Made by a program: the position numbers and the translations under genes. Shown piece after piece: positions 12,684 through 59,659 of a DNA stretch of 64,000 bases (position 1 is the stretch's first letter; every line of letters begins with the position of its first letter). The stretch comes from Alphaproteobacteria bacterium (lineage in GTDB: Bacteria; Pseudomonadota; Alphaproteobacteria; Rickettsiales; UBA8987): assembly GCA_031426355.1 (NCBI GenBank), contig JANPLD010000068.1, positions 71,477 through 135,476 on the forward strand, written 5' to 3'. The notes beneath the pieces were generated by a model. It did not search any database. It had not been told where the DNA came from and saw only the letters and a program-made list of their open reading frames with translations.

Positions 12684-13166
12684 TTATAATTTTCTGTACA
12701 TAATAAAAGCATCCACCAATCCAAGTTTTGAATGACGGAAACCATTGGGAATAGTGCCTATTATTTCAAAACCTAGAGACTTCCATAAATTTACCGCAGG
12801 AGTATTTGTTGAAACAACAAAGTTGAATTGCATGGCGATATAGCATTCTTTCTTCGCCTGCTCTATCGAATGCATGCCTAGCGCTTTACCAATACCTTTC
12901 CCGTGAAAATCAAGTGATACCATGTAGCTTGCGTTTCCTATGTGATCGCCCAAACCTTTCCGGTTTTTGCGGAGGGCGTACATTCCTGCAACTTTGCCAT
13001 CAATTTCAGCTACGAAGCATTTTGTGTGTTTACCGGTGAAATAATCTATCGCTTCTTCTTTTGAGGTATTGGGAAGAAAAGTATAAGTATCACCACCCTG
13101 AACTACAGCATGAAATATATTCCAGACAGATTCGGAATCGGAAGGTTTATAAGGGCGGATTAACAT
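12684..13166 (-). CDS. GNAT-family N-acetyltransferase
   Basis: 160 aa. The acetyl-CoA binding segment is VSLDFHGKGIGKALGMHSIEQAKK, followed by NTPAVNLWKSLGFEIIG. The start overlaps the stop of the upstream VirD4-like gene (TAATG). Confidence 0.85.
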   Translation of the reverse strand: MLIRPYKPSDSESVWNIFHAVVQGGDTYTFLPNTSKEEAIDYFTGKHTKCFVAEIDGKVAGMYALRKNRKGLGDHIGNASYMVSLDFHGKGIGKALGMHSIEQAKKECYIAMQFNFVVSTNTPAVNLWKSLGFEIIGTIPNGFRHSKLGLVDAFIMYRKL

Positions 13167-14497
13167 TAATCTTTATCTTCATTGTTATCATTAACAATAT
13201 TCCTTTTATTTGCAGTACTATCATGCACTAAAGAAAGATAAGATATATTATTGCGTTTATTTTTATCATTATTTTCCTTTGGCATTTTCATTTCTTTTTT
13301 TGAAATTTCTTGTACTGGTAACCAACTTTCTCCTTTTAATCTGTCTTTAAACATTTCTTTAGGATTTATTTTTTTAAGAAATTTAGGTTTTTGTCCCTCT
13401 TTAAAGAAAAGTAAGTTATTTGACAAAAGTTTAGATAAATATTTATCTCTCATTTTTTCTAATAAAAAGAAAGCTTCTAAAGTTTTTTTATCATTAATTA
13501 AGTATGCTATTTTATTTCCTGAGTTCGCGAAAAAACTGTAAGAGAAATTTTTTAAACAATTTTCAACTTGACTAAAATCATCAAAAACAGAACATAATTT
13601 TATATTATTGTTATAAAGAAGTGGCAAATCTGAAAGAACTTCAGCAGCATAACCTAAAGTATTAAAATTATTAATCATAAGTAATATGGGAATATTACCA
13701 TTACTATTTATCTTTTTTTTGATTAGCTGTTTATAAAAGATAGCTATAAGGGGATTAACTTTTTCTATATCAGTAGAATTAAGAGTTATATAGATAGTTA
13801 TTTTTTCTTTGGAAAGCTTAGATAAATCAAAATCACTATGATAGGTGAAGGTTTTAAGCTTAGGATTAGAAAATTTGTGAATTACATTATTTATTGTAGC
13901 TATAATTTTTGATTTTTCTTCATTAGATTTTTGAAGAAAATTTGCTATTTCTTTGTAAGCTATAGGATGTATTATGTTATTATGCCTATCTAATATAACC
14001 GCTAAATCATATGGAACATCGCTTGAGCTAATTATAGTATATATTTCGGAAAATGTACAAGGTCTTTCAATTAGAGAAACTAAGCAAATTAATAATCCTG
14101 TAAGTAAATTTTTTGCTTCAATATCGCAGGATTCATTTTTTGGAAAAAACCAATGAGAAATCTCTGTCATATCATCTACTATTTCACTAAAATCTCTATT
14201 TATCCAATCTAAAGGATTATAACAATACCCTCTAAGATCTGAAGCTAAAGGATTCCAAATATAAACTTTTTGACCAATTGACTCCCTATAACCGCTTGTT
14301 GCTTTAAAAATTTCTCCAGTTGGATCCTGTACAACTGCGGAATGGTTCCAATTCAATAGATTAGTTATAGCAAAACTTTCTGTCTTATTAGTTCCTATTG
14401 GCCCGCATAGGAGAAAATGATTATTATCATCTACTGAAATTATATTTTCATCATTTCTACCAATTATGATCTCTTTTGAGATTTTTGGTTTTTCCAT
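13166..14497 (-). CDS. VirD4/TraG-like (type IV coupling protein family) paralog, TM-less, with degenerate NTPase motifs
   Basis: HFLLCGPIGTNKTESFAITNLLNWNHSAVVQDPTGEIFKATSGYRESIGQKVYIWNPL...YNPLDWI aligns with the Walker-A region of VirD4/TraG (…APTRSGKGVG…P.LL…S.vv.D.KGE….T…R….G..V….P……NPL…). The Walker-B position reads LLMINNFNTLG instead of llDEF..lG. No N-terminal TM helices. Very AT-rich. Confidence 0.6.
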   Translation of the reverse strand: MEKPKISKEIIIGRNDENIISVDDNNHFLLCGPIGTNKTESFAITNLLNWNHSAVVQDPTGEIFKATSGYRESIGQKVYIWNPLASDLRGYCYNPLDWINRDFSEIVDDMTEISHWFFPKNESCDIEAKNLLTGLLICLVSLIERPCTFSEIYTIISSSDVPYDLAVILDRHNNIIHPIAYKEIANFLQKSNEEKSKIIATINNVIHKFSNPKLKTFTYHSDFDLSKLSKEKITIYITLNSTDIEKVNPLIAIFYKQLIKKKINSNGNIPILLMINNFNTLGYAAEVLSDLPLLYNNNIKLCSVFDDFSQVENCLKNFSYSFFANSGNKIAYLINDKKTLEAFFLLEKMRDKYLSKLLSNNLLFFKEGQKPKFLKKINPKEMFKDRLKGESWLPVQEISKKEMKMPKENNDKNKRNNISYLSLVHDSTANKRNIVNDNNEDKD

Positions 14498-17373: not shown

Positions 17374-17592
17374 ATGACTTTATCAGTAAAATTAGGCGAT
17401 GATATTGAGAATAGATTAAGTGAACTCGCCGATATAACGGGCCGTACTAAAACCTATTATATAAAAAAAGCGGTGCTAGAAATGCTTGAGGACATGGAAG
17501 ATATTTATATTACAGAAAAAAGAATTGAAAATAAAAGTGAAAAAATCTGGTCAATGAAAGAAATAGAGGCTGAACTTGACCTGGCGCATTGA
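17374..17592 (+). CDS. relB: Ribbon-helix-helix (RelB/CopG-type) antitoxin
   Basis: 72 aa. An N-terminal beta-strand plus helices (LSVKLGDDIENRLSELADITGRTKTYYIKKAVLEMLE). Overlaps the downstream RelE-like ORF by 17 nt. Confidence 0.75.
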   Translation: MTLSVKLGDDIENRLSELADITGRTKTYYIKKAVLEMLEDMEDIYITEKRIENKSEKIWSMKEIEAELDLAH

Positions 17593-17845
17593 ATGGAAAG
17601 AGAGTGCAAGAAAAGAGCTTAGAAAACTGAATAAACAAGCTCAGTCACAGATAATTTCCTATTTAAAAGAATCTATAGAAAAATCTGATAATCCTAAAAA
17701 TTTTGGCAAGCCACTTGTAGGAAATTTAAAAGGATTGTGGAGATATAGAATTGGTGATTATCGGGCAGTGTGCCAAATACAGGATGAAAAAATTACTGTT
17801 TTAGTTGTAAGAATCGCCCATAGAAAAGAGGTTTATGATAACTAG
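17576..17845 (+). CDS. relE: RelE/ParE-family type II toxin
   Basis: 89 aa with a TTG start. Contains WRIEWKESARKELRKL...GLWRYRIGDYRAVCQIQDEKITVLVVRIAHRKEVY, which matches the RelE pattern (…YRLVYQV.D..v.v.vi.vg.R..vY). Confidence 0.8.
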   Translation: MTWRIEWKESARKELRKLNKQAQSQIISYLKESIEKSDNPKNFGKPLVGNLKGLWRYRIGDYRAVCQIQDEKITVLVVRIAHRKEVYDN

Positions 17846-35903: not shown

Positions 35904-36293
35904 ATGGACTTAAGTAAAATTACATCCTTTGCGCTTCTTGAAGAGAAGATGAAATATAATGCCGACAGGCAGCAGGTTATCGCTGAGAATTTCGCTAATG
36001 TGGATACGCCGGGATATAAGAGGAAAGATATTGAGAAGCCTGATTTTGCTAATATTTTTAATGAAAAGCTTTCAGCACTTACTCCGGCGCAGACAAATTC
36101 GAAGCATATTGGCGCGGTTGATGATGATTCGATAAATGGCAGAAAGGTCATAACTTCCGAAGATAAAGTTCAACTTGATATGGAAGCGTTGGAAATGATG
36201 CAGAACAGCACATCTTATTCAGAGGCTAACGCAACTTATAAAAAGATGCTTTCCCTTGTAAGGGTTGCAATAGAAGGAAGCGGAGCGAGATAA
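35904..36293 (+). CDS. flgB: Flagellar basal-body rod protein FlgB
   Basis: …RQQVIAENFANVDTPGYKRKDI… is the rod-protein N-terminal motif. First gene of a flgB-flgC-fliE cluster. Confidence 0.85.
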   Translation: MDLSKITSFALLEEKMKYNADRQQVIAENFANVDTPGYKRKDIEKPDFANIFNEKLSALTPAQTNSKHIGAVDDDSINGRKVITSEDKVQLDMEALEMMQNSTSYSEANATYKKMLSLVRVAIEGSGAR

Positions 36294-36763
36294 TGAAAGA
36301 ACTTGTTTACATATTTTTATTTATAATTTGCGTGCCTTCGGTTTCAGAGGCGGCGGGCGGTCTTAAAAAAGCCCTGACAAGTTCGGCCTCTGCAATGAAA
36401 GCGCAGTCTGAAAGGATACGTGTCATCACTGAGAATATCGCCAACTCTGATACAACAGGTCTTACTGAAACTGAGGAGCCTTATAGAAGGAAGACCGTAT
36501 ATTTTGAGAATGTCAAAGATGATGAGACCGGCGCAAATGTAGTAAAAGTAAAAAAGATTGCCCGAGATGATAGTGAGTTCAAACTTATTTACCGCCCTGA
36601 TCACCCTGCGGCTAACGCAGATGGGTATGTTCGCTTCCCAAATGTTGACAGGAACCTTGAAAACATTGATATTCGTGAAGCGCAAAGAAGTTACGAAGCT
36701 AATGTTACAGCAATTGAAGTAACTAAACAGATGATGGAAAGATCACTAGATTTAATGAGATAA
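36293..36763 (+). CDS. flgC: Flagellar basal-body rod protein FlgC (with unusual hydrophobic N-terminal extension)
   Basis: SASAMKAQSERIRVITENIANSDTTG and the C-terminal DGYVRFPNVDRNLENIDIREAQRSYEANVTAIEVTKQMMERSLDL are FlgC signatures. There is a 1-nt TAATG overlap with flgB. Confidence 0.88.
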   Translation: MKELVYIFLFIICVPSVSEAAGGLKKALTSSASAMKAQSERIRVITENIANSDTTGLTETEEPYRRKTVYFENVKDDETGANVVKVKKIARDDSEFKLIYRPDHPAANADGYVRFPNVDRNLENIDIREAQRSYEANVTAIEVTKQMMERSLDLMR

Positions 36764-37090
36764 ATGACAAAAAGAAAAGTTATGACCAGTTTAAATATGT
36801 TAGATGCAGTTTCTGCCTATAATAAAACTTCCTCTCTTGACGGGAAAGGTTTTGGCGTATCACAGGCACCTTCCAGCGATTTTACCTCTCTGGTGGAAAA
36901 AGCACTTAGTGATACTAAAGATAAGTTAGATATTGCGGAAACCTCAACAGCTGGCTCAGTAAAAGGTGATATCAGCCTTGAAGACCTTGCAATAGCAGTT
37001 GCCAATGCGGAAGTAAGCCTCAAGACCTTAGTTTCCATTCGTGATAAACTTGTCAGCGCATTGCAGGATATTCTAAGGATGCCTATTTAG
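36764..37090 (+). CDS. fliE: Flagellar hook-basal body complex protein FliE
   Basis: 108 aa. The C-terminal …AIAVANAEVSLKTLVSIRDKLVSALQDILRMPI matches the FliE C-terminus (…vRnK…AYqeImrMqv). Position after flgC. Confidence 0.8.
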   Translation: MTKRKVMTSLNMLDAVSAYNKTSSLDGKGFGVSQAPSSDFTSLVEKALSDTKDKLDIAETSTAGSVKGDISLEDLAIAVANAEVSLKTLVSIRDKLVSALQDILRMPI

Positions 37091-38439: not shown

Positions 38440-40821
38440 TCATAATAAAACCTCTGTAATTGCCACCTCCCCCCGCCCGACTTTATCAGACATCTGGTAT
38501 ATTCTGGCGGTAAAGTTAGTTGCTAGAGAACCAAAGTCAGAACTCTGCATACCTTCAGTATAATTAAAACTTGGAGAGGTTATTTTCTCAGTCCTTTTTA
38601 AAGTAGAAGCATCGAAAATGTCTATTTCATATTCTTCCTTAGTTTCAAAAACAGGGATCTCTACACTTGAAGAAAAAGAGATATTACCGCGTGATCTTCT
38701 CAGCCATTGTATATTGATGTCATCATCCATTTCCCTTTCGGCAGAAATATGGACAGGTGAATATGGCTTTAATGAATTTCCAGAAAAGTTAATTTCTTTT
38801 GCGGTAACATCATCTGCACTTTTACCAAAGGTTACAGCTTTTATCCAGATAGTTTGGCCGATCTGTGAAACAGGCATCTCTATCTTTAAAACATTCTCAT
38901 CAAGCAGGATGAACCTGCTGCCTGCAGGATGAGTTTCACCTGCGTAATTTTCTGTACCCTGACGGCCGCGATATAAGTGGCTAAGCGTATATTTATTTAA
39001 TTCTGTCTGGTTGATATTTTTAAACTGAAAATTTTCATTTCCTATCAAAGCTAAATTTCCAAATGATTGTAGATTATCTTCTGTTAGTGATTCTAAAGTT
39101 CCACCGATCAAATTTATATTCAGCTGATTAATTTTATCAATAACAGGGGAGCTGAATTGTAACAGTTCAGTTTCAATAACTCCCATTGTTGCAGGGGAAA
39201 CAATATCAGTTATTTTCTGAAAACCTTCTGTTGCGGAAATATTGCTTACATATATTGCGCAACCATTCCAGTTAGAAGAAGTACCGCAGACAGCCAGATG
39301 CAGATATGCTTTATCTATTGAAGTTTCATTTGGCAAATGATGTGTATCAATTATCTCAAAATAAGTATCGGAGATAGGTTCCAGATTTTCACTGTTATAA
39401 TCAGTCGTAAGTTCCTCATTGGCGGAAGAATAAAAATCATTTTCAAATCTTATTGCAGATATTTTTATCTTGCCTTGCTGCGTGAGTGAGGAAATTATTT
39501 TCAGCTTATAGGTCTCATCATTTTTAATGATGTTCACTATATCGCCTGCTTCAATATATAAATATTCAGATGGCAGTGAGAATTCTATCTTCTGAGTTAT
39601 TGCTTCCTCTTCAAGAAGTAAAGTTTGTGCTATTTTTTCAGCATATGATCTGTTCAATAATAATGGCAGATTAATCTCAATACCGGATGAATTATTTTTA
39701 TCTTCGCGCGAGATGTCAAAATTTCCGACAAGGTAATTATTATTTTCCGATATATAATTAAGGCTGAGGTTTGAAGTAATATTCAGGCTAGATGCATTTT
39801 CAAACAGCATGGTCTCATTATTCTTTTCGAAAATTAATCTGCTAAAATCTATATTTATTTCTTCAGTGTTTTCACTCTGCCTTGGGAAGAATTTCACTTT
39901 ATCACTTTCAACAAAATCAAAAAAGTAACCTGATTGTAATGTTCGCAGGGCTTCTAAAGCTGTGATAGCACCCGAGAGATTATATCCGCTGACAAGTTTA
40001 TTAACATTATTTATTTCTGGAGTTTCAATACCGGCTTTTTTGCAGAGGTCAGAAATTATATTCTTAAGTTCAGCTACCCCTAATTTTCCATTTATCCAAT
40101 GGCCGCGGCTCCATAAATTTCCATCACCCCAGACATTTTTCATATCAGGGTAAAATGGATAGGACCTCGCATCATAAGCCCAAATAAATTTCTGCTCCAC
40201 CATTTCAGAATTCTGCCATTTTGCCAAGGTTCCCTGAAGCGCCGTTCTTTGCGCCAGAAAATCAATATATCCTTTGGATAAATATGGCAGGTTGCCATCA
40301 ACTGAATCAGGATTATAAAAAACATTTGGCTGATTGGCGCAGCCATCAACTGAAGGAAAACCAAACTCAGTGAACCATATTTTTTTACTTTGTGGTACAA
40401 ACTCTGTTTGTTCTGAATCAGGATTTGTATGAGTATTATTCCACCAATATTCAATATTTTTCCAAGCATCTTGAGGTGTTAAATCTGCTTTTACAGTGCG
40501 TTCTTCATCAGTGTAATACCAGTCATAACCTTCACCATTTTCCCAGCCGTCTATAATTTCTTGCTTATCGTATATTCCATTCTGCTCCCTGTCAGTGAGT
40601 GGGAAATATGCATCGATACCGATGAAATCTATATTGTCTGATGCCCATAGAGGATCCATATTATACCAGCCATTTGTGGAATGGTATTCACTCCAATCCG
40701 CTGCGTAACCTATTTTGGTTTCAGACCCCATTATTGTTTTAACTTCCTCTACAAGGGCTATCAGTTCGTCCACTGCCGAGAAACTATCATCAGCATCCTG
40801 AATTTGTGTCAGGCCTTTCAT
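38440..40821 (-). CDS. GTA host-specificity/tail-fibre protein (RcGTA g15-like), C-terminal fragment; the frame is actually open up to the frameshift at 40910..40915
   Basis: The 793-aa ORF begins inside the conserved …VDAFIIGSEMKGLTQI…TKIGYAADWSEY… TIM-barrel-like region of g15-type proteins. Upstream in the same frame, FFTKTNGYNNFILHYADLVKDKVDAFIIGSE is also readable. Confidence 0.8.
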   Translation of the reverse strand: MKGLTQIQDADDSFSAVDELIALVEEVKTIMGSETKIGYAADWSEYHSTNGWYNMDPLWASDNIDFIGIDAYFPLTDREQNGIYDKQEIIDGWENGEGYDWYYTDEERTVKADLTPQDAWKNIEYWWNNTHTNPDSEQTEFVPQSKKIWFTEFGFPSVDGCANQPNVFYNPDSVDGNLPYLSKGYIDFLAQRTALQGTLAKWQNSEMVEQKFIWAYDARSYPFYPDMKNVWGDGNLWSRGHWINGKLGVAELKNIISDLCKKAGIETPEINNVNKLVSGYNLSGAITALEALRTLQSGYFFDFVESDKVKFFPRQSENTEEINIDFSRLIFEKNNETMLFENASSLNITSNLSLNYISENNNYLVGNFDISREDKNNSSGIEINLPLLLNRSYAEKIAQTLLLEEEAITQKIEFSLPSEYLYIEAGDIVNIIKNDETYKLKIISSLTQQGKIKISAIRFENDFYSSANEELTTDYNSENLEPISDTYFEIIDTHHLPNETSIDKAYLHLAVCGTSSNWNGCAIYVSNISATEGFQKITDIVSPATMGVIETELLQFSSPVIDKINQLNINLIGGTLESLTEDNLQSFGNLALIGNENFQFKNINQTELNKYTLSHLYRGRQGTENYAGETHPAGSRFILLDENVLKIEMPVSQIGQTIWIKAVTFGKSADDVTAKEINFSGNSLKPYSPVHISAEREMDDDINIQWLRRSRGNISFSSSVEIPVFETKEEYEIDIFDASTLKRTEKITSPSFNYTEGMQSSDFGSLATNFTARIYQMSDKVGRGEVAITEVLL

Positions 40822-40856
40822 TTCTGAGCCGATGATAAATGCATCTACCTTATCTT

Positions 40857-42146
40857 TTACCAGATCAGCATAATGAAGAATAAAATTATTATACCCGTTG
40901 GTTTTAGTGAAAAAATATGAACTTCAGATGAATCGCAGGTTATATATCCGCGCCATGGCTTATCTATAATATCCATAAAAATCATCGGATAGAATTTTAC
41001 TTTTAGTCCTCTGTTTGTTGCTTCTTCTATAAATCTTAAAATACTTTCATCACTTGGTGTGCCGCCATAAATAGGGCGTTCATCTGCGTAAGTTACCAGC
41101 GCTGCAGTGTCGCGGTTATATCCAGCAACATGCCATTCAGTGGGAAAAGTTTTCGTCTGGGTTTTATATTCTACGCGTGGCGCAACAGTGCAAACATTTG
41201 CATCAAGTGAATTGCCAAACCAGCAGCAAACCAGACTTACATATTCAATATTTGGGAAATTATTTTGTAAATTATCCAAGGCAACTAATGCATCTGCTTT
41301 ACCGCTGGCATTATTCTGATTGATAAATTTTTCTTCACCGGTCTGGTGCCAGATACCTAAAATTTCCACCCCATCTTTTTTACTATGGGTTAAAGTATCA
41401 TAAACAAATTCGCCGCTTCCCGGTATAATATTCACTGCGGTAACATTATTTTCTAGATTGTTTTCATCTCCTGATATTTTTAAATTGCGGATTATCTCAA
41501 AAGTGAAATTCGGTATTCTGCCCCTAAATTCAGTTAGTTCAAAATCTTCAAAAACTATATAGGCAAGGCCACGATATGCAGGGGTTTTATTTTCACCTTC
41601 ATAAGATTCTATTACAGGGTCTGGAAGTTGGGTTTCATCCCCTTTATAGATACTGTAAGAAGCGCAGTAATCATTGGGATTGATCAGATTTGAATCTGCC
41701 CAGACACGGTCGACATAGTCAATTTCACCTTCGCATAATGCAATGGCGATATTTACGAAATAACGGAAATTAGTTTCGGTTTTCCTTTCTACTTTCGCGC
41801 TGCTGCCTTTACCGCCCTGATTGACAGGTGCTCTTTCTTCGACGATCCTGACATTGGTTGACCAGACGATATTACCGGCTATCCTTGTTTTGCCGTAAAT
41901 TATAGGGATCGCGTCACCATAAGAAGATTTCTGTATTGAGAAATCAGTTAGTTTTTTTCCTCGGATTATATTCTTTTCATTCTCACCGAAAAGGTTTGAA
42001 TCAATTGAATTGCCGAGCCTTGTGGCTCCGGCATTAAGCCCTTCTTTAACCTGACCCTCAACAATATTACCGAATACCGGGATCTGCGAAAGACCAAATG
42101 ATTCTACAAAACTATTTGATGCACTTGTTAATACTGTTGTTGTCAT
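40857..42146 (-). CDS. GTA host-specificity/tail-fibre protein (RcGTA g15-like), N-terminal fragment
   Basis: …YGKTRIAGNIVW…FRYFVNIAIALCEGEIDYVDRVWADSNLI…YKGDETQLPDPVIESYEG…PAYRGLAYIVFEDFELTEFRGRIPNFTFEI… matches the conserved N-terminus of alphaproteobacterial GTA g15 proteins. The last 30 or so residues are out-of-frame nonsense. Confidence 0.8.
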   Translation of the reverse strand: MTTTVLTSASNSFVESFGLSQIPVFGNIVEGQVKEGLNAGATRLGNSIDSNLFGENEKNIIRGKKLTDFSIQKSSYGDAIPIIYGKTRIAGNIVWSTNVRIVEERAPVNQGGKGSSAKVERKTETNFRYFVNIAIALCEGEIDYVDRVWADSNLINPNDYCASYSIYKGDETQLPDPVIESYEGENKTPAYRGLAYIVFEDFELTEFRGRIPNFTFEIIRNLKISGDENNLENNVTAVNIIPGSGEFVYDTLTHSKKDGVEILGIWHQTGEEKFINQNNASGKADALVALDNLQNNFPNIEYVSLVCCWFGNSLDANVCTVAPRVEYKTQTKTFPTEWHVAGYNRDTAALVTYADERPIYGGTPSDESILRFIEEATNRGLKVKFYPMIFMDIIDKPWRGYITCDSSEVHIFSLKPTGIIILFFIMLIW

Positions 42147-42158
42147 AACTTCATTAAT

Positions 42159-42584
42159 TTAGTTTTTGATTCTATAAATTTTTACTATCTTTGATCTCCA
42201 CACATCATTAAGGCGATGTTTCACCGCTTTGCCAATCTGGCTGTAACAGTGAATGAGTGCTAGGTTTTCATTATTATATTTCGTGATGAAGCCAGTATGC
42301 TGAGGGAATTTTCCGAACTTCATCAGAAATATATCACCTTCTTGCATCTTATTTTTTTCAATTGAAAGAAGCGAAGCTTCCATTTTTTCCTGCAGTAAAA
42401 ATGTTGAGGGGATACGGGAATATCCTGCTTCATCATTTTGCGTGAGGTCAACTTCGCAATTTTTCAGGACAGTTAGTACAAACCCTATGCAATCAACACC
42501 TATAGCAATATTCCTGCCTTGATGGACAAAGGGAACTCCGATCAGTTTTTCAGCTTCTGAGATTATTTTATTTTGTAAATCCAT
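42159..42584 (-). CDS. NlpC/P60-family cell-wall peptidase (RcGTA g14-like)
   Basis: 141 aa. …GVPFVHQGRNIAIGVDCIGFVL… provides the catalytic Cys context, followed by …HTGFI…LIHCY. Position between the g13- and g15-like genes. Confidence 0.8.
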   Translation of the reverse strand: MDLQNKIISEAEKLIGVPFVHQGRNIAIGVDCIGFVLTVLKNCEVDLTQNDEAGYSRIPSTFLLQEKMEASLLSIEKNKMQEGDIFLMKFGKFPQHTGFITKYNNENLALIHCYSQIGKAVKHRLNDVWRSKIVKIYRIKN

Positions 42585-42586
42585 AT

Positions 42587-43414
42587 CTATACTTTTAATA
42601 TCCTGTCTGTTCCCGGGATATGAGGTTCCCCACGAAAATTAATTATGTTGTCGAATTTGGAGATACAGGTTTGTGAATTTTTATCGCAGCCTACAGAGAC
42701 CTGATATTCATCACCTGTTTCAATATCTTTTATAAGAGAAGTAAGAAGTTTGAATTTGCCTTCTGTGAAATTTGCGATCTCTCTTATAGAACCAGAGTTC
42801 GCGCCGCTTAAGAATGTAATCACCCCTTTTGAGAAATAATTTTTCTCTTCAGTTCGCGCGGTATCAATGAATTCCATTTTATTTATTGTGAATGTAACTG
42901 CTCCTGAGAATGTATGGTCAGCAATATTTATTCCGCATTTGCTATCGCCAAATTTTGCTCTGCAATTAGGTGAGAAATTCTGTGATATTCTGTTTTTAAG
43001 TAATGAAGAATATCCTGATATCTCAATAAATAATTTATCGTCATCATATCTTATTTTTGAAATAAAACCTTTTTTGAGAATTAATTTCCCATCTTCAGGA
43101 GATTCATAATTCAGTAAAAATATTTCTATATCGGCAGAATCTAATTTACTTGATTCAACTTCAGTTTTTGAGATGATATCATCTTCAATAACACTTAAGA
43201 TACTTTCTTTTTTATTAACTGAAAACCCTGAATAATCAGCAAAGATATCAGATGACAGATAAGGTTTATAAATATTGCCGTCATATTGGAATTCCTTATC
43301 GAAACTGGTTAAGGCGATCACTGATCCATCCTTACAGGTAATAAGAATGAATTTTGCTAAGGTTGTTACTTCTTTTGCAAGATGCCCTTTTAAATTTTCG
43401 GAAATGTTTTTCAT
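42587..43414 (-). CDS. DUF2163 / BR0599-type phage protein (RcGTA g13-like hub protein)
   Basis: 275 aa. Contains …TLAKFILITCKDGSVIALTSFDKEFQYDGNIYKP… and the C-terminal CDKNSQTCISKFDNIINFRGEPHIPG motif typical of this family. Confidence 0.78.
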   Translation of the reverse strand: MKNISENLKGHLAKEVTTLAKFILITCKDGSVIALTSFDKEFQYDGNIYKPYLSSDIFADYSGFSVNKKESILSVIEDDIISKTEVESSKLDSADIEIFLLNYESPEDGKLILKKGFISKIRYDDDKLFIEISGYSSLLKNRISQNFSPNCRAKFGDSKCGINIADHTFSGAVTFTINKMEFIDTARTEEKNYFSKGVITFLSGANSGSIREIANFTEGKFKLLTSLIKDIETGDEYQVSVGCDKNSQTCISKFDNIINFRGEPHIPGTDRILKV

Positions 43415-44013
43415 ATTTTTACCTCTATCAATTCAATTTTTGACATTGAAGCTTTGGAGAAATTTTCTGTTGAGTATGAAAGGATATCTGAGTTGAAACG
43501 CGCCGGAACATCGAATTCGAAATCTGCTTTTACCACCACAGAATTTGCAGGAGGACTTGAAAAAGTAATAACTCCATTATTATTCCCGAGGGAAAATCCC
43601 GAAGCCTGCTTAATATTATCAAGATAGACCTATATGCTCTGCGGCACCGGTTTCGTAATTTTTCTCTCAATCTCATAAATCTCATCTCCGTATTTTTTAA
43701 TAAGCTGGAATTGTGTTTTTAAATTATTGCCTGTTCCGAGTATTTGGCCTTTCGCCTGAAAATCTGCCCAGTCTTTGAAGCGGAAGCCATAGGCCATACC
43801 CCGGCGTGCGATAAAGAAATCGCGGATCTTTTCTGCCTGAGCGGTAGAAATATTTTTGAAATCGATCTCATATTTCGCGCGAGGGATTGAATTATTTATA
43901 TTCCGCTTCTCGTGGCCGCTCGTCATTAAATTAACGGAAGTTGAGAATTCCTGACCACCTTGCGCTTTAAAAGAAATATCTGCGGGGAACCTTGCTTCGT
44001 GAAAATCTGTCAT
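43411..44013 (-). pseudogene. DUF2460 protein (RcGTA g12-like) interrupted by an in-frame TAG at 43630..43632
   Basis: The track ORF 43630..44013 (FHEARFPADISF…GGQEF…SGHEKRN…RRGMAYGFRFKDWADF…KPVPQSI*) stops at TAG. The same frame continues for 72 codons (VYLDN…GVITFSSPPANSVVVKADFEFDVPARFNSDIL…) to a TGA that overlaps the g13-like ATG. Together this is about 200 aa, the normal length of the family. Confidence 0.8.
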
Positions 44014-44109
44014 TGGGAATCTCCTATAAAATTATTCTGCGATAGAGATTATAAACTTCCTTTGATGCCGGATTTATATCGGCCTTGCCCCTATTCTCAA
44101 AACGATAGG

Positions 44110-44577
44110 CTATCTGGTAAAAAGCGCCGTTTTGATGATCTGTGGAACATTATCTGCTTCCTCACCATATCCGGCAAAGTAATCTATGTAGATAAACTTT
44201 GCAGAAGGAAGAACATCAAAAAAGAGGAAATATTTTGCCGGAGAAAGATAATAATTCGAAGCAGAAAATGCTGTTTCATCACCATTTTTATCTATCAATT
44301 TTACCGAGTCGATAGAACTTACCGGACCCATCGGCAAATCAACTTCCATTTCAGTTGAACTGCAATATGCAAGGCGCCATTTCTGTGTGATGAGAGAAGC
44401 CTTCATATATTTTTCAGCTTCGATACGAGCTGATTTTATAAGATCCTCAATAGTACTATTTTCTGCATCGCCGCTGATGCGTAAGAATTCCTTTACTTCA
44501 TCTGCTGTTACCGGTTCAATTTCCGGTTCAGTTAATTTTATCAATTCCGGTTTCCTGCTTTTAAAAATTCCGAACAT
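44110..44577 (-). CDS. gp6-type head-tail connector/adaptor (RcGTA g6-like), C-terminus displaced by a frameshift
   Basis: …PVTADEVKEFLRISGDAENSTIEDLIKSARIEAEKYMKASLITQKW… is the gp6-like N-terminal signature. The expected C-terminal …YRFENRGKADINPASKEVYNLYRRIIL* is readable in the -1 frame down to TAG 44024..44026. Confidence 0.75.
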   Translation of the reverse strand: MFGIFKSRKPELIKLTEPEIEPVTADEVKEFLRISGDAENSTIEDLIKSARIEAEKYMKASLITQKWRLAYCSSTEMEVDLPMGPVSSIDSVKLIDKNGDETAFSASNYYLSPAKYFLFFDVLPSAKFIYIDYFAGYGEEADNVPQIIKTALFTR

Positions 44578-44701: not shown

Positions 44702-45904
44702 CTAACTAGCTGCCAGTTTTAATAATTTGATCGCTTCAAAATTAACCACACCACCACCTACACGTTTAGTCGTGTAGAATTTCACGAATGGTTTTTCAGT
44801 GTATGGATCGCGGAGGATGCGGATACCTGTCCTATCAACGATCTGATATGCACGTTTAAAATCTGCAACGGCAACTGAAAGTGAGTTGGTTGCGGGAACC
44901 GGCATATCGGAAGCCTTAACCACTGGAACGCCGAGTAATGTATCAGGCGTTCCTGCTGTTAGGCCGGGCTGCCAGAGATATTGATTCGTAGTTGCTTCTT
45001 TCAGTAAACGAACTGCCTGAACTGTTGCTCTGTTCATCATGAAGGCGTTATTTGCATATTCATCTTTTAAAGCATAATAGAGTTTGATGAGTGAATCGGA
45101 AGTTACCGCGCCTGCTGAAAGTGAGCTGATCTGTTCAATCTGCCCGGCACCGGTTCCTGCGGTATAGGCAAGTATACCTTTTGGTTTGCCCGAACCATTA
45201 CCTGAAACAAAGGCAGTGTTTTCTTTGCGTGAGAAAACTTCCACCAGTTTTTCAGTAAGCCAGCTTTCAATATCAATTGACGAATCATCAATTAATTTTT
45301 GCGTTGCCTTAGGCTGTGCCACAAGCTCATATGCAGTGATAGAAAGCTTGCCGATCTGCGGTGTATCGGAATCAGAAACGGCAGCGGATTCTGAAGATGC
45401 CCAGTCTGCTCCAGCTTCGTCGCTATCTTCTATTATTTCGAAAACGTCAGATGAAAGTTGCGTAACATTTGCAACCTGCCTCATTGGTGAGCTTTCATAG
45501 ATGATGCGTGCAAGCTGCGCGCTCATTTGCGGTGTAACCAGATATCCGCCGTCTGCATCAGTGCCAACTGAAAGGGCTTTCTTCTCGAGGAAAGAAAGAT
45601 CACCTTCAACGCCTTTACGAACGTAATTGATGAAAGCTGCTTTATGTTCGCCTGCAATATTTGATGAAACATCGCTTTTATATTCACCACCAAGTGAGGG
45701 GCGGTTCAGAACTGTCTCAACACCGTCAAGACGGTTCTTGAATTCGTCTATTACATTATTTAATTTGTTAATATGATTTGTTGTTAAAGAATCCGCAGAG
45801 CCTTTTTTCTCTATCTCCTGCAGCCTCCTTTCATTAAGTTTTTTGAAATCATCCCATGCGGAGCCGAGTTCATCAACTTTTCTTGTTATTGTAGAAATAC
45901 TCAT
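44702..45904 (-). CDS. HK97-family major capsid protein (RcGTA g5-like)
   Basis: 400 aa. An N-terminal coiled delta-like region (…VDELGSAWDDFKKLNERRLQEIEKKG…) is followed by the HK97-fold body (…GGYLVTPQMS…, …NQYLWQPGLTAGTPDTLLGVPV…). Confidence 0.9.
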   Translation of the reverse strand: MSISTITRKVDELGSAWDDFKKLNERRLQEIEKKGSADSLTTNHINKLNNVIDEFKNRLDGVETVLNRPSLGGEYKSDVSSNIAGEHKAAFINYVRKGVEGDLSFLEKKALSVGTDADGGYLVTPQMSAQLARIIYESSPMRQVANVTQLSSDVFEIIEDSDEAGADWASSESAAVSDSDTPQIGKLSITAYELVAQPKATQKLIDDSSIDIESWLTEKLVEVFSRKENTAFVSGNGSGKPKGILAYTAGTGAGQIEQISSLSAGAVTSDSLIKLYYALKDEYANNAFMMNRATVQAVRLLKEATTNQYLWQPGLTAGTPDTLLGVPVVKASDMPVPATNSLSVAVADFKRAYQIVDRTGIRILRDPYTEKPFVKFYTTKRVGGGVVNFEAIKLLKLAAS

Positions 45905-45912
45905 AATTTTCC

Positions 45913-46422
45913 TTATTTTAAAATGTTAATTGTCTTGTCCAGTAAGGAGAGAAGCTCTGCTTCAGGCTCATCTGATTTTACACTGAGGATCTTTGCGGAA
46001 TCATTGGCCGGGAAAGTGACCAGACTTATTTCGAATAATTCTGCTTTTTTGATTACGCGAACTTCGGTTTCATCATCAATTTCAAAATCAGTGACCCTGA
46101 AACCAATGCTTAAGCCTTTCAGCGCACCGCTTTTGAGGAGTGCGTAAGCTTCGCGAGCGCGTTCGATCTCAAGTAGAAGCTGGCCTTCAACGTACAGTCC
46201 GTTGTCATCTTCTTCTATGTGAGTAAAAATCCCGATCGGTTCATCTGCGCGGTGTTGCCAGAGTAATTTTATTTCCCCGGCATTTTTGGTCAGATCTGAA
46301 AAAGCACCTTCCAGAATTATATCATCGTGATTATCTATAACGCCGAATACGCTGGCGTAACCTGAGAAAAAACCCTTTTTATTAAGAGATTTTATCTCAA
46401 GGGAATAATTATAATTTTGCAT
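45913..46422 (-). CDS. HK97-family prohead protease (RcGTA g4-like)
   Basis: 169 aa. GYASVFGVIDNHDDIILEGAF…LWQHR…PIG…LSIGF…EISLVTFPAN matches the S78/U35 prohead protease pattern. Confidence 0.88.
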   Translation of the reverse strand: MQNYNYSLEIKSLNKKGFFSGYASVFGVIDNHDDIILEGAFSDLTKNAGEIKLLWQHRADEPIGIFTHIEEDDNGLYVEGQLLLEIERAREAYALLKSGALKGLSIGFRVTDFEIDDETEVRVIKKAELFEISLVTFPANDSAKILSVKSDEPEAELLSLLDKTINILK

Positions 46423-51055: not shown

Positions 51056-52258
51056 ATGAAAAAATCTAAACGATCTATCTTTTCTATATTCAAAAAATTT
51101 TCTCCTAAAAAAATAGAGAAAAAAAGTTTAAGTTCTGATCAGTATAAGACATATTTCTATGACTCGGCAAAACCTGTGTGGATGAGCCGTAATTACGGAA
51201 AATTCGCTGACGAAGGTTATATCAGGAATGTCATTGCGAATCGCTGCGCTTCAATGATAGCAAAAAATATTTCATCGATAAAAATAAAATTATTTGAGAA
51301 TAATTCCGAAAAGAAATTCGAGATAAAAAACCATCCGCTGCTTAATATTATCAGATTCCCTAACCCCGCAACTAATGGGAATCTATTCAGGGAAGCACTT
51401 TTCTCACACCGCCTTATAAGCGGCAATTCCTATATATTAGCGGTTAAGAATTCTGCCGGGATACCGCTTGAACTTTATACTCTACGTCCTGATAGAATAA
51501 GCATTACAACTGACAGATCAGGTTTTGTGACCTCATATATTTATAAAGGAACTGATAAGGAAATACGTTATTCAGTTGATAAACTGACTGGGCAATCTGA
51601 TGTTCTGCATCTTAAGAACTTCCACCCGCTTGATGATCATTTTGGACTCAGCCCTATAGAGCCTGCGGCATATTCAATTGACCAGCATAATCAGGCGGCC
51701 CAGTGGAACCAAAGTTTACTTCAGAATGGTGCGAAGCCAAGCGGCGCGCTCGTAATAAAACCGCAGAATGAAGGCGGGATGGGTAGCCTTACAGATGAGC
51801 AATACACAAGAATAAAAAGGCAGATGGAGGAGGAATTCAGCGGACATAATAATGCTGGGAAACCTATGCTGCTGGAAGGTGGCTTAGACTGGAAAGAGAT
51901 GAGCCTGTCGCCACGTGATATGGATTTTATCTCATCAAAACATAATTCTGCCCGTGAAATTGCGCTGGCATTTGGTGTGCCACCGCAACTACTCGGAATT
52001 CCAGGTGATAACACTTACAGTAATTTGATTGAGGCAAGACTTGAACTCTGGGAACAAACAATACTTCCGCTTGCAGAAGAATATATTTCCGCTCTTAACC
52101 ACTGGCTGACGCCAATGTTCAATAATGATGACCTTGAGCTTGATATAGAGAATATTCCGGCGCTTCTGCCGCGCAGGGAAAGCCTGTGGAAACGGGTAAA
52201 TGAAAGCAGTTTTATTTCAGAAGAGGAAAAAAGAAGACTGGTTGGAATGGGAGATTAG
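51056..52258 (+). CDS. HK97-family phage portal protein (RcGTA g3-like)
   Basis: 400 aa. …YIRNVIANRCASMIAKNISSIKIKLF…GNSYIL…LHLKNFHPLDDHFGLSPIEPAAYSIDQHN…NGAKPSGAL…PRDMDFI… matches the HK97-type portal pattern. Confidence 0.9.
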   Translation: MKKSKRSIFSIFKKFSPKKIEKKSLSSDQYKTYFYDSAKPVWMSRNYGKFADEGYIRNVIANRCASMIAKNISSIKIKLFENNSEKKFEIKNHPLLNIIRFPNPATNGNLFREALFSHRLISGNSYILAVKNSAGIPLELYTLRPDRISITTDRSGFVTSYIYKGTDKEIRYSVDKLTGQSDVLHLKNFHPLDDHFGLSPIEPAAYSIDQHNQAAQWNQSLLQNGAKPSGALVIKPQNEGGMGSLTDEQYTRIKRQMEEEFSGHNNAGKPMLLEGGLDWKEMSLSPRDMDFISSKHNSAREIALAFGVPPQLLGIPGDNTYSNLIEARLELWEQTILPLAEEYISALNHWLTPMFNNDDLELDIENIPALLPRRESLWKRVNESSFISEEEKRRLVGMGD

Positions 52259-58868: not shown

Positions 58869-59573
58869 TTATTGTCTTCCTCTTTGCTCATTATTTTGAA
58901 TAGGAATATTATTTATGTTTCCATTACCGGCAATAGTAATACCTTGTTTAGCTAACCCTAAGTCTTTTGCTTTAACCATTCCCCAAAGAGCATCTGCTAC
59001 AGCCTTTTGTTGAGCTTTATCTCTATTTAAAGATACTCCTGTAGGGGTTTCCTTATCAAAAATCTTTAAGTCATCAATTTTATTAATGTCATTATGACCT
59101 TGTAAGATTACTCCTGAAACAATTTTTCCTTCAGAATTGGCAGTATAAATATAAGTATTTTTATCATCACAAAATCCCCTGATTACATTATTATCAGGAT
59201 AAAATTGTAATTTATCATAATCTCTTTCAAAAGATCCAATAACTACAAAAGAAGAATTCTTGATTGTTATAAAATCTTCATCCACTTTTTCCATATAACC
59301 TTTACCACTTGATAAATCTACCAAAGCAATAGAATTATTTATCTCTACAAAATCATCACGGCTTCCTACTGAAAGATCGCCAATGGAATTAATTAAGCTA
59401 ATCTGATCAACTGTATTTTTTAGAACCAGTACTGCATTAGTATTTTCCAAATTAAATTTGGTACTGGGTGGAATAAGAGCTTGAGTATCATTAAGAGTTT
59501 GATTTAAATTTCCACCTTTCTGGTTAACAATAATTACCGGATCGCCATTATTTTTTGTTTTCATAAGTTTCAT
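58869..59573 (-). CDS. Hypothetical protein (AT-rich orphan), divergent from the LysR gene
   Basis: The track ORF starts at TTG 59795 but would overlap the LysR gene by 136 nt. ATG 59573 (MKLMKTKNNGDPV…) is preferred. No recognisable motif. Confidence 0.45.
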   Translation of the reverse strand: MKLMKTKNNGDPVIIVNQKGGNLNQTLNDTQALIPPSTKFNLENTNAVLVLKNTVDQISLINSIGDLSVGSRDDFVEINNSIALVDLSSGKGYMEKVDEDFITIKNSSFVVIGSFERDYDKLQFYPDNNVIRGFCDDKNTYIYTANSEGKIVSGVILQGHNDINKIDDLKIFDKETPTGVSLNRDKAQQKAVADALWGMVKAKDLGLAKQGITIAGNGNINNIPIQNNEQRGRQ

Positions 59574-59659
59574 TTTTTGATTTCCAGAAAATATAGACAA
59601 AAATCTGTTATTGTTATAGTTAATAGTATTAAAGTTTATTGTTGAAGAATTGAATAGTA

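Follow-up and report, generated by a model that had tools for sequence, protein, structure and literature searches.

GTA gene sets of Rickettsiales and Holosporaceae have kept head and capsid genes and are missing tail components; some pseudogenisation occurs, and selection, purifying overall, is weaker on the tail genes (George et al. 2022, PMC9254644). In the RcGTA particle, as seen in the cryo-EM structure, the adaptor forms a dodecamer that sits on the portal clip by means of its C-terminal hook. This hook, residues 175-197 of the g6 product, binds to alpha8, a helix of the portal clip domain, and the adaptors of HK97, SPP1 and Mu have similar tube domains and hooks (PMC7296036).

The window, by which we mean the whole stretch of 64,000 nucleotides analysed here, contains a GTA-type module with the gene order g4-g5-g6-g12-g13-g14-g15 beside recA. 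A portal gene (g3) is found nearby, about 5 kb from the main cluster and on the opposite strand. The features considered in the following are:

51056..52258, plus strand: g3-like HK97-type portal gene, intact (TIGR01537, 227.6 bits, profile positions 4-338 of 343)
45913..46422, minus strand: g4 prohead protease gene, intact (169 aa), upstream of g6
44702..45904, minus strand: g5 HK97-type major capsid gene, intact (400 aa), directly upstream of g6
44110..44577, minus strand: 5' part of the g6-like head-tail adaptor gene, 155 codons and a premature TAG at 44110..44112
44117..44123, minus strand: lesion site, CTT TTTAC CAG, overlapping the T5 run at 44123..44119
44024..44116, minus strand: displaced 3' part of g6, QIAYRFENRGKADINPASKEVYNLYRRIIL followed by the native stop TAG at 44024..44026, in the -1 frame
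43411..44013, minus strand: g12-like gene (DUF2460), broken by an in-frame TAG at 43630..43632
42587..43414, minus strand: g13-like gene, intact (275 aa)
42159..42584, minus strand: g14-like NlpC/P60 gene, intact (141 aa)
38440..42146, minus strand: g15-like 'megatron' gene, split into ORFs of 429 aa and 793 aa

The module is reduced, as portal, protease, capsid and adaptor genes are kept and the tube, terminator and tape-measure genes are missing from the cluster. No g7-g11 genes (stopper, terminator, tube, chaperones, tape measure) were found between g6 and g12, neither in the window nor in the related loci L001, L003 and L024. In both respects, retention of g3-g6 and absence of g7-g11 between g6 and g12, the locus resembles the sets described by George et al. 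(2022), and it also shares with them strong purifying selection (dN/dS 0.05-0.10) and sporadic pseudogenisation. It differs in that the lesions hit the head-side adaptor g6, in addition to the distal-tail genes g12 and g15, and in that all three lesions look very young, while L001, L003 and L024 keep those genes intact as far as their contigs reach. The window is one more instance of the known reduced GTA module, unusual only in the head-side lesion and in the coincidence of three fresh lesions.

The nearest named relatives are MAGs designated 'Rickettsiales bacterium'. Two related loci, L003 (8046..16126) and L024 (7994..12006), carry an intact g4-g5-g6-g12-g13 set next to recA, with g6 products 59-60% identical to that of the window; the cluster of L003 continues into intact g14 and g15 genes, and the L024 locus ends after g13. 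In L001, the closest relative (Logan assembly of SRR13608703), about 1.45 kb is inserted between g5 and g6 (1786..3235), where the window has a spacer of 124 bp, and the two ORFs in this insert (55 aa and 197 aa) gave no Pfam match.

Membership of the gp6-like head-tail connector family is indicated by matches above the curated cut-offs of both TIGR02215 (70.9 bits for the truncated product, cut-off 39) and PF05135 (26.3 bits, cut-off 21.2); PF24163 is a further profile of this same family. The gene also has the position of an adaptor in an HK97-type head module, with g4 and g5 immediately upstream and the same order in L001, L003 and L024. Searched against solved structures, the family profile matches the RcGTA adaptor Rcc01688 (g6, PDB 6TBA) best, with E = 4e-12.

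The coding strand before the premature stop reads GCG CTT TTT ACC AGA TAG, and the 155-aa product of the ORF ends in NVPQIIKTALFTR (...KTALFTR*). The T5 run within this stretch occupies 44123..44119 of the coding strand, corresponding to an A5 run at 44119..44123 of the plus strand. A -1 frame is open between a TAA at 44150..44152 and the TAG at 44024..44026; it reads ...GAFYQIAYRFENRGKADINPASKEVYNLYRRIIL* and, from the T5 run onward, YQIAYRFENRGKADINPASKEVYNLYRRIIL. The end of the annotated frame, the position of the run and the extent of the -1 frame had all been described in a sequence-only reading of this DNA, and each was recovered here. The last 29-30 codons of the g6-like gene sit in the -1 frame, and the product is about 30 residues shorter. 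An open stretch of 29 codons is by itself not significant in DNA of 38% GC (roughly P = 0.1), and the frameshift call is therefore carried by homology.

This homology is extensive. A search of 5.8 billion protein clusters yielded a set of nine homologous proteins of 178-196 aa, all of which keep the C-terminus in frame through Q(I/V)A..YENR...VYNLYRR..L, the window protein being the sole truncated member. An intact relative of 184 aa with 93% identity (P0002, from the Logan assembly of SRR13608703) has a C-terminus identical to the displaced tail at 28 of 29 residues. When an HMM was built from the nine relatives only, leaving out the window protein, the zero-frame piece matched profile positions 1-153 (253 bits) and the -1-frame piece (44027..44149) matched positions 150-184 (37.2 bits, E = 1e-13), so that the two matches abut at positions 150-153. 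With the same HMM the real tail alone scored 35.8 bits, and the best of 500 shuffled tails reached 7.2 bits. Profiles of the gp6 family, which the earlier reading had proposed aligning in both frames, gave a concordant picture. Joining the frames raised TIGR02215 by 10 bits to 81.1 bits, with coverage extended from positions 3-152 to 3-165 of 188, raised TIGR01560 by 15 bits (from 24.2 to 39.2), and brought PF05135 to 30.9 bits. The C-terminal helix and hook are not encoded in frame with the rest of the adaptor, as positions 150-184 are found in the -1 frame only. The displacement of a conserved gp6-like C-terminus by a one-base frameshift, as first read from the sequence, is hence backed by the profiles, by the nine homologues and by a DNA alignment with L001.

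One could suppose that the 155-aa form ending in ...TALFTR is native to this lineage and that the downstream open frame has arisen by chance, the more so as the ORF is called at 155 aa in two public gene sets. The sequence-only reading had itself named this as the competing outcome. We give it practically no credence, since none of the nine homologues ends at ...TALFTR, the tail outscores every shuffled version against the relatives-only profile and nearly matches the C-terminus of P0002, and its substitution pattern is synonymous in the shifted frame. A native end at ...TALFTR is refuted by the homologues and the profile scores, and the comparison came out in favour of the frameshift.

The pairwise DNA alignment with L001, which is intact and 86-88% identical, shows a single gap, which lies at the T-run (GCGCTTTT-TACCAG in the window versus GCGCTTCTGAATCAG in L001). 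At this site L001 and L022 read CTT CTG AAT CAG, L023 reads CTT CTC AAC CAG, L003 reads TTG CTT AAT CAA and L024 reads CTT CTT AAC CAA. All five of these nearest relatives, for which DNA was compared, encode L-L-N-Q, and there is no T-run in any of them. The window has five bases (44121..44117) in place of the two codons CTN AAY (Leu-Asn) of the relatives; the lost base can be confined to 44117..44121.

One extra T in the T5 run had been suggested as the repair of the gene. Such an addition does restore the frame, but it yields LFYQ instead of the conserved LLNQ, and the ancestral state was probably not T6 because the five nearest relatives read CTN AAY. On this comparison the most parsimonious history would start from CTN AAY and take one deletion and one substitution, that is two changes from the LLNQ consensus, versus three for slippage from T6 to T5, which we have downgraded as the mutational event. 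The 184-aa protein that results from a T6 repair has no exact match in a collection of 15 billion proteins, and its cluster mate of 184 aa is another, intact relative. We propose that a single base was lost between codon Leu152 and the conserved Gln, after which translation would run through F-T-R to the stop at 44110..44112.

With respect to RcGTA g6, the window gene encodes homologous attachment and tube domains and likewise stands directly after an HK97-type capsid gene. The YENR helix and the C-terminal segment are encoded as well, but out of frame. The two genes differ in that the frame is broken in the window, and their sequence identity is low. By profile alignment the truncation leaves untranslated the equivalent of RcGTA g6 residues ~157-197, a segment that comprises the final part of the last tube-domain helix together with the C-terminal hook. 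Alignment to RcGTA g6 suggests for the intact form of the window adaptor a dodecamer docked on the portal clip by its hook. The truncated product would be unable to dock on the portal and is predicted not to work, because the segment that it lacks grips the portal clip in the RcGTA structure.

An AGGAG ribosome-binding site of g12 overlaps the native g6 stop TAG (44024..44026), and g12 starts with an ATG at 44013, 10 nt past this stop. The overlap suggests translational coupling of g6 and g12, which would be loosened by a premature stop situated 86 nt upstream of the native one.

Programmed -1 frameshifting is known in tail-chaperone genes of phages and GTAs, of the lambda G/GT type and in RcGTA g10/g10.1. 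The situation in g6 is similar insofar as a -1 change occurs at a U-rich stretch inside a phage-derived structural module, and it differs in that the gene is an adaptor and has no canonical heptamer, stimulatory structure or conserved shift. Some full-length adaptor might nevertheless be made, or be restorable, by programmed -1 ribosomal frameshifting, by transcriptional slippage on the T-run or by homopolymer phase variation. After slipping back by one base (CU-UUU-U), a P-site tRNA-Phe on UUU could indeed pair perfectly again; T-runs are the site of two of the three lesions, and in the shifted frame the tail is conserved. Read in the zero frame, however, the site is G CUU UUU A and not an X XXY YYZ heptamer, as re-pairing of a P-site CUU on GCU is not possible. 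No stimulatory structure is predicted for the 79 nt that follow, whose fold of -14.5 kcal/mol is close to the mean of the shuffled sequences (-13.7, z = -0.29), and Rfam returned no family at gathering score in the whole 64 kb, be it tRNA, rRNA, riboswitch or sRNA. None of the nine homologues has the shift; all are single ORFs, among them the five without a T-run in the DNA comparison. RNA-polymerase slippage and phase variation are efficient at run lengths of about 8-9 or more. The T5 run is far shorter, and a plain nonsense codon such as that in g12 is beyond rescue by slippage. Recoding was rejected on these grounds (heptamer, structure, Rfam family and conservation all lacking), and we regard it as highly improbable. 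A related idea is that the T-run frameshifts of g6 and g15 act as reversible on/off switches at the population level, gating the production of tail-less GTA-like particles. If true, this would explain why the displaced coding sequence is undecayed; we hold it to be similarly improbable.

The single-base deletion in g6 is accompanied by lesions in two further genes of the module, both of which had been claimed before and were confirmed here by tblastn, by a three-frame view and in the sequence itself. The tblastn queries were the intact proteins of L003, a relative with 59% identity. For g12, the L003 protein gave one HSP running through the internal stop, a TAG at codon 128 that corresponds to TCT in L001 and to AAA in L003 and L024. 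For g15, the intact 1258-aa protein of L003, encoded there by a single ORF, gave two HSPs in different frames meeting at 40893..40914. The g15 homologue of the window would have been about 1250 aa before it was split by the loss of one base in or next to the T6 run that occupies 40910..40915 (window CAT AT TTTTTC versus L003 GAT TTT TTC). The g6 query also produced two HSPs in different frames. In total, three of the eight GTA-type genes (g6, g12 and g15) carry lesions, and g3, g4, g5, g13 and g14 are intact.

In a greedy ORF map, which accounts for 93% of the window, no other gene is split, and the interval 58869..59659, at first taken for a gap, holds a 308-aa ORF on the minus strand and not a broken gene. 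About 40 non-GTA ORFs match NCBIfam or Pfam profiles end to end with no lesion seen; full-length examples are nuoG-L, gyrB, recF, ppdK, glyS, ileS, dnaB, recA, alaS, valS, ribD and glyA. The earlier observation of broken GTA-type genes among intact housekeeping genes thus holds, both for these profile-matched ORFs and for the map of 53 ORFs. Counted by gene, lesions are found in 3/8 GTA genes versus 0/53 others (Fisher P = 0.0016); counted by coding length, the probability for all three lesions is P = 0.0035. Homopolymer runs of at least 5 bases number 71 in the GTA genes, with two frameshifts, and 385 in non-GTA coding sequence, where the ORFs are unbroken; by this count the probability of both frameshifts falling in GTA genes is P = 0.024. 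The enrichment of lesions in GTA genes is non-random.

The sequence-only reading had ascribed this pattern to relaxed selection on the module rather than to poor sequence quality. The enrichment stands, but relaxation is visible in nothing other than the lesions; long-standing relaxation is unsupported by either dN/dS or the branch counts. Between the window and L001, which have diverged to a dS of 0.5-0.9, dN/dS is 0.070 for g5, 0.048 for g6 (0.046 upstream of the lesion and 0.043 in the displaced tail) and 0.095 for g12 (0.047 before the TAG and 0.23 after it). These retained GTA genes are under purifying selection. Five of the six substitutions in the displaced tail are synonymous in the shifted frame and one is non-synonymous; with a dN/dS of 0.043 and no extra stops, this tail shows none of these signs of neutral decay. 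Nor is there an excess of amino-acid changes on the branch of the window, with 8 versus 5 in g5, 3 versus 2 in g6 and 3 versus 7 in g12. The module has been under strong purifying selection nearly throughout the divergence, and any relaxation of selection is very recent rather than long-standing.

The low dN/dS, even in the displaced tail, points to a young lesion; so intact a tail leaves room for just two readings, a very recent lesion or an error. Provided that they are real, all three lesions arose very recently. As a rough estimate, a neutral divergence of about 0.2-0.3% would suffice for two indels and one nonsense codon in 9 kb, and dN/dS would not register so small an amount. With three lesions in a module whose coding signal is still strongly conserved, purifying selection most probably acted on it until very recently; decay would then have only just begun in this lineage, or the module would have been inactivated in the sampled population.

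It is likely, in our judgement, that the g6-like adaptor gene was really hit by a single-base deletion and is an ordinary young pseudogene in a reduced GTA module. The frame is disrupted in comparison with intact close homologues and a conserved segment is lost, as follows from the gap against L001 and from the 184-aa relative, which is what defines a pseudogene. A sequencing or consensus error, with one more base in the real genome both here and in g15 and an intact adaptor, is rather unlikely but has several observations in its favour. The source sequence is a metagenome-assembled genome, and both frameshifts touch T5 or T6 runs, homopolymers being a classic place for indel errors. The undecayed state of the displaced tail is what an error would predict; the balanced distribution of amino-acid changes over the branches in g5, g6 and g12 also counts against a real lesion.

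The sole independent evidence on this point is the Logan assembly of SRR20217183, in which a 17.3-kb contig agrees with the window at every base of a 4804-bp stretch containing the g6 lesion and the g12 TAG; this contig is possibly built from the same reads. The Logan gene call for the N-terminal ORF of g15 is also 429 aa, which implies that the g15 lesion is present there too. An assembler artefact is ruled out by the agreement between two assembly pipelines, whereas a systematic error in the reads would survive it. In JGI metagenomes, searched with a DNA pattern with variable gap and then with a protein query, no near-identical strain with either allele was found. Against an error also stand the ORFs containing the 385 non-GTA runs, which are free of frameshifts and of which about 40 are full length, and the neighbouring lesion in g12, a nonsense substitution beyond the reach of homopolymer error. 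Moreover, the simplest repair to T6 gives LFYQ where all five close relatives have LLNQ, and the alternative repair, TTT AAC, needs an error in a mere AA dinucleotide.

In annotations, the 155-aa 'head-tail connector' is best marked as a frameshifted pseudogene or possible sequence error. If the lesions are real, the locus offers a natural loss-of-function contrast, with adaptor, g12 and g15 hit here and intact in sister lineages, and it would indicate that tail-poor GTA modules under purifying selection in Rickettsiales-like bacteria are not universally retained.

Some further observations were made in the window outside the GTA module. The sole oddity among the non-GTA ORFs scanned is a VirD4/TraG-like coupling protein of 443 aa (13166..14497, minus strand), located 64 bp from ppdK, which is without the N-terminal part of the profile. 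It matches NF010472 at positions 141-478 of 657 with 235 bits (cut-off 728) and PF02534 at positions 43-374 of 468; it may be the truncated remnant of a longer gene, as both its N-terminal membrane part and its C-terminus appear to be absent. Between ppdK and glyS, overlapping genes for a RelB-family antitoxin (72 aa) and a RelE/StbE toxin (89 aa) are found at 17374..17845 of the plus strand. The product of nuoJ (1147..1962, minus strand) has 271 aa against a profile of 211 positions and matches it in two blocks, 1-136 and about 179-238, which implies that about 40 residues have been inserted mid-protein. Finally, three small genes lie in tandem at 35904..37090 of the plus strand; the middle one encodes a full-length FlgC flagellar rod protein, and the flanking ORFs of 129 aa and 108 aa occupy the positions of FlgB and FliE, from which it appears that this Rickettsiales-like MAG keeps flagellar genes.
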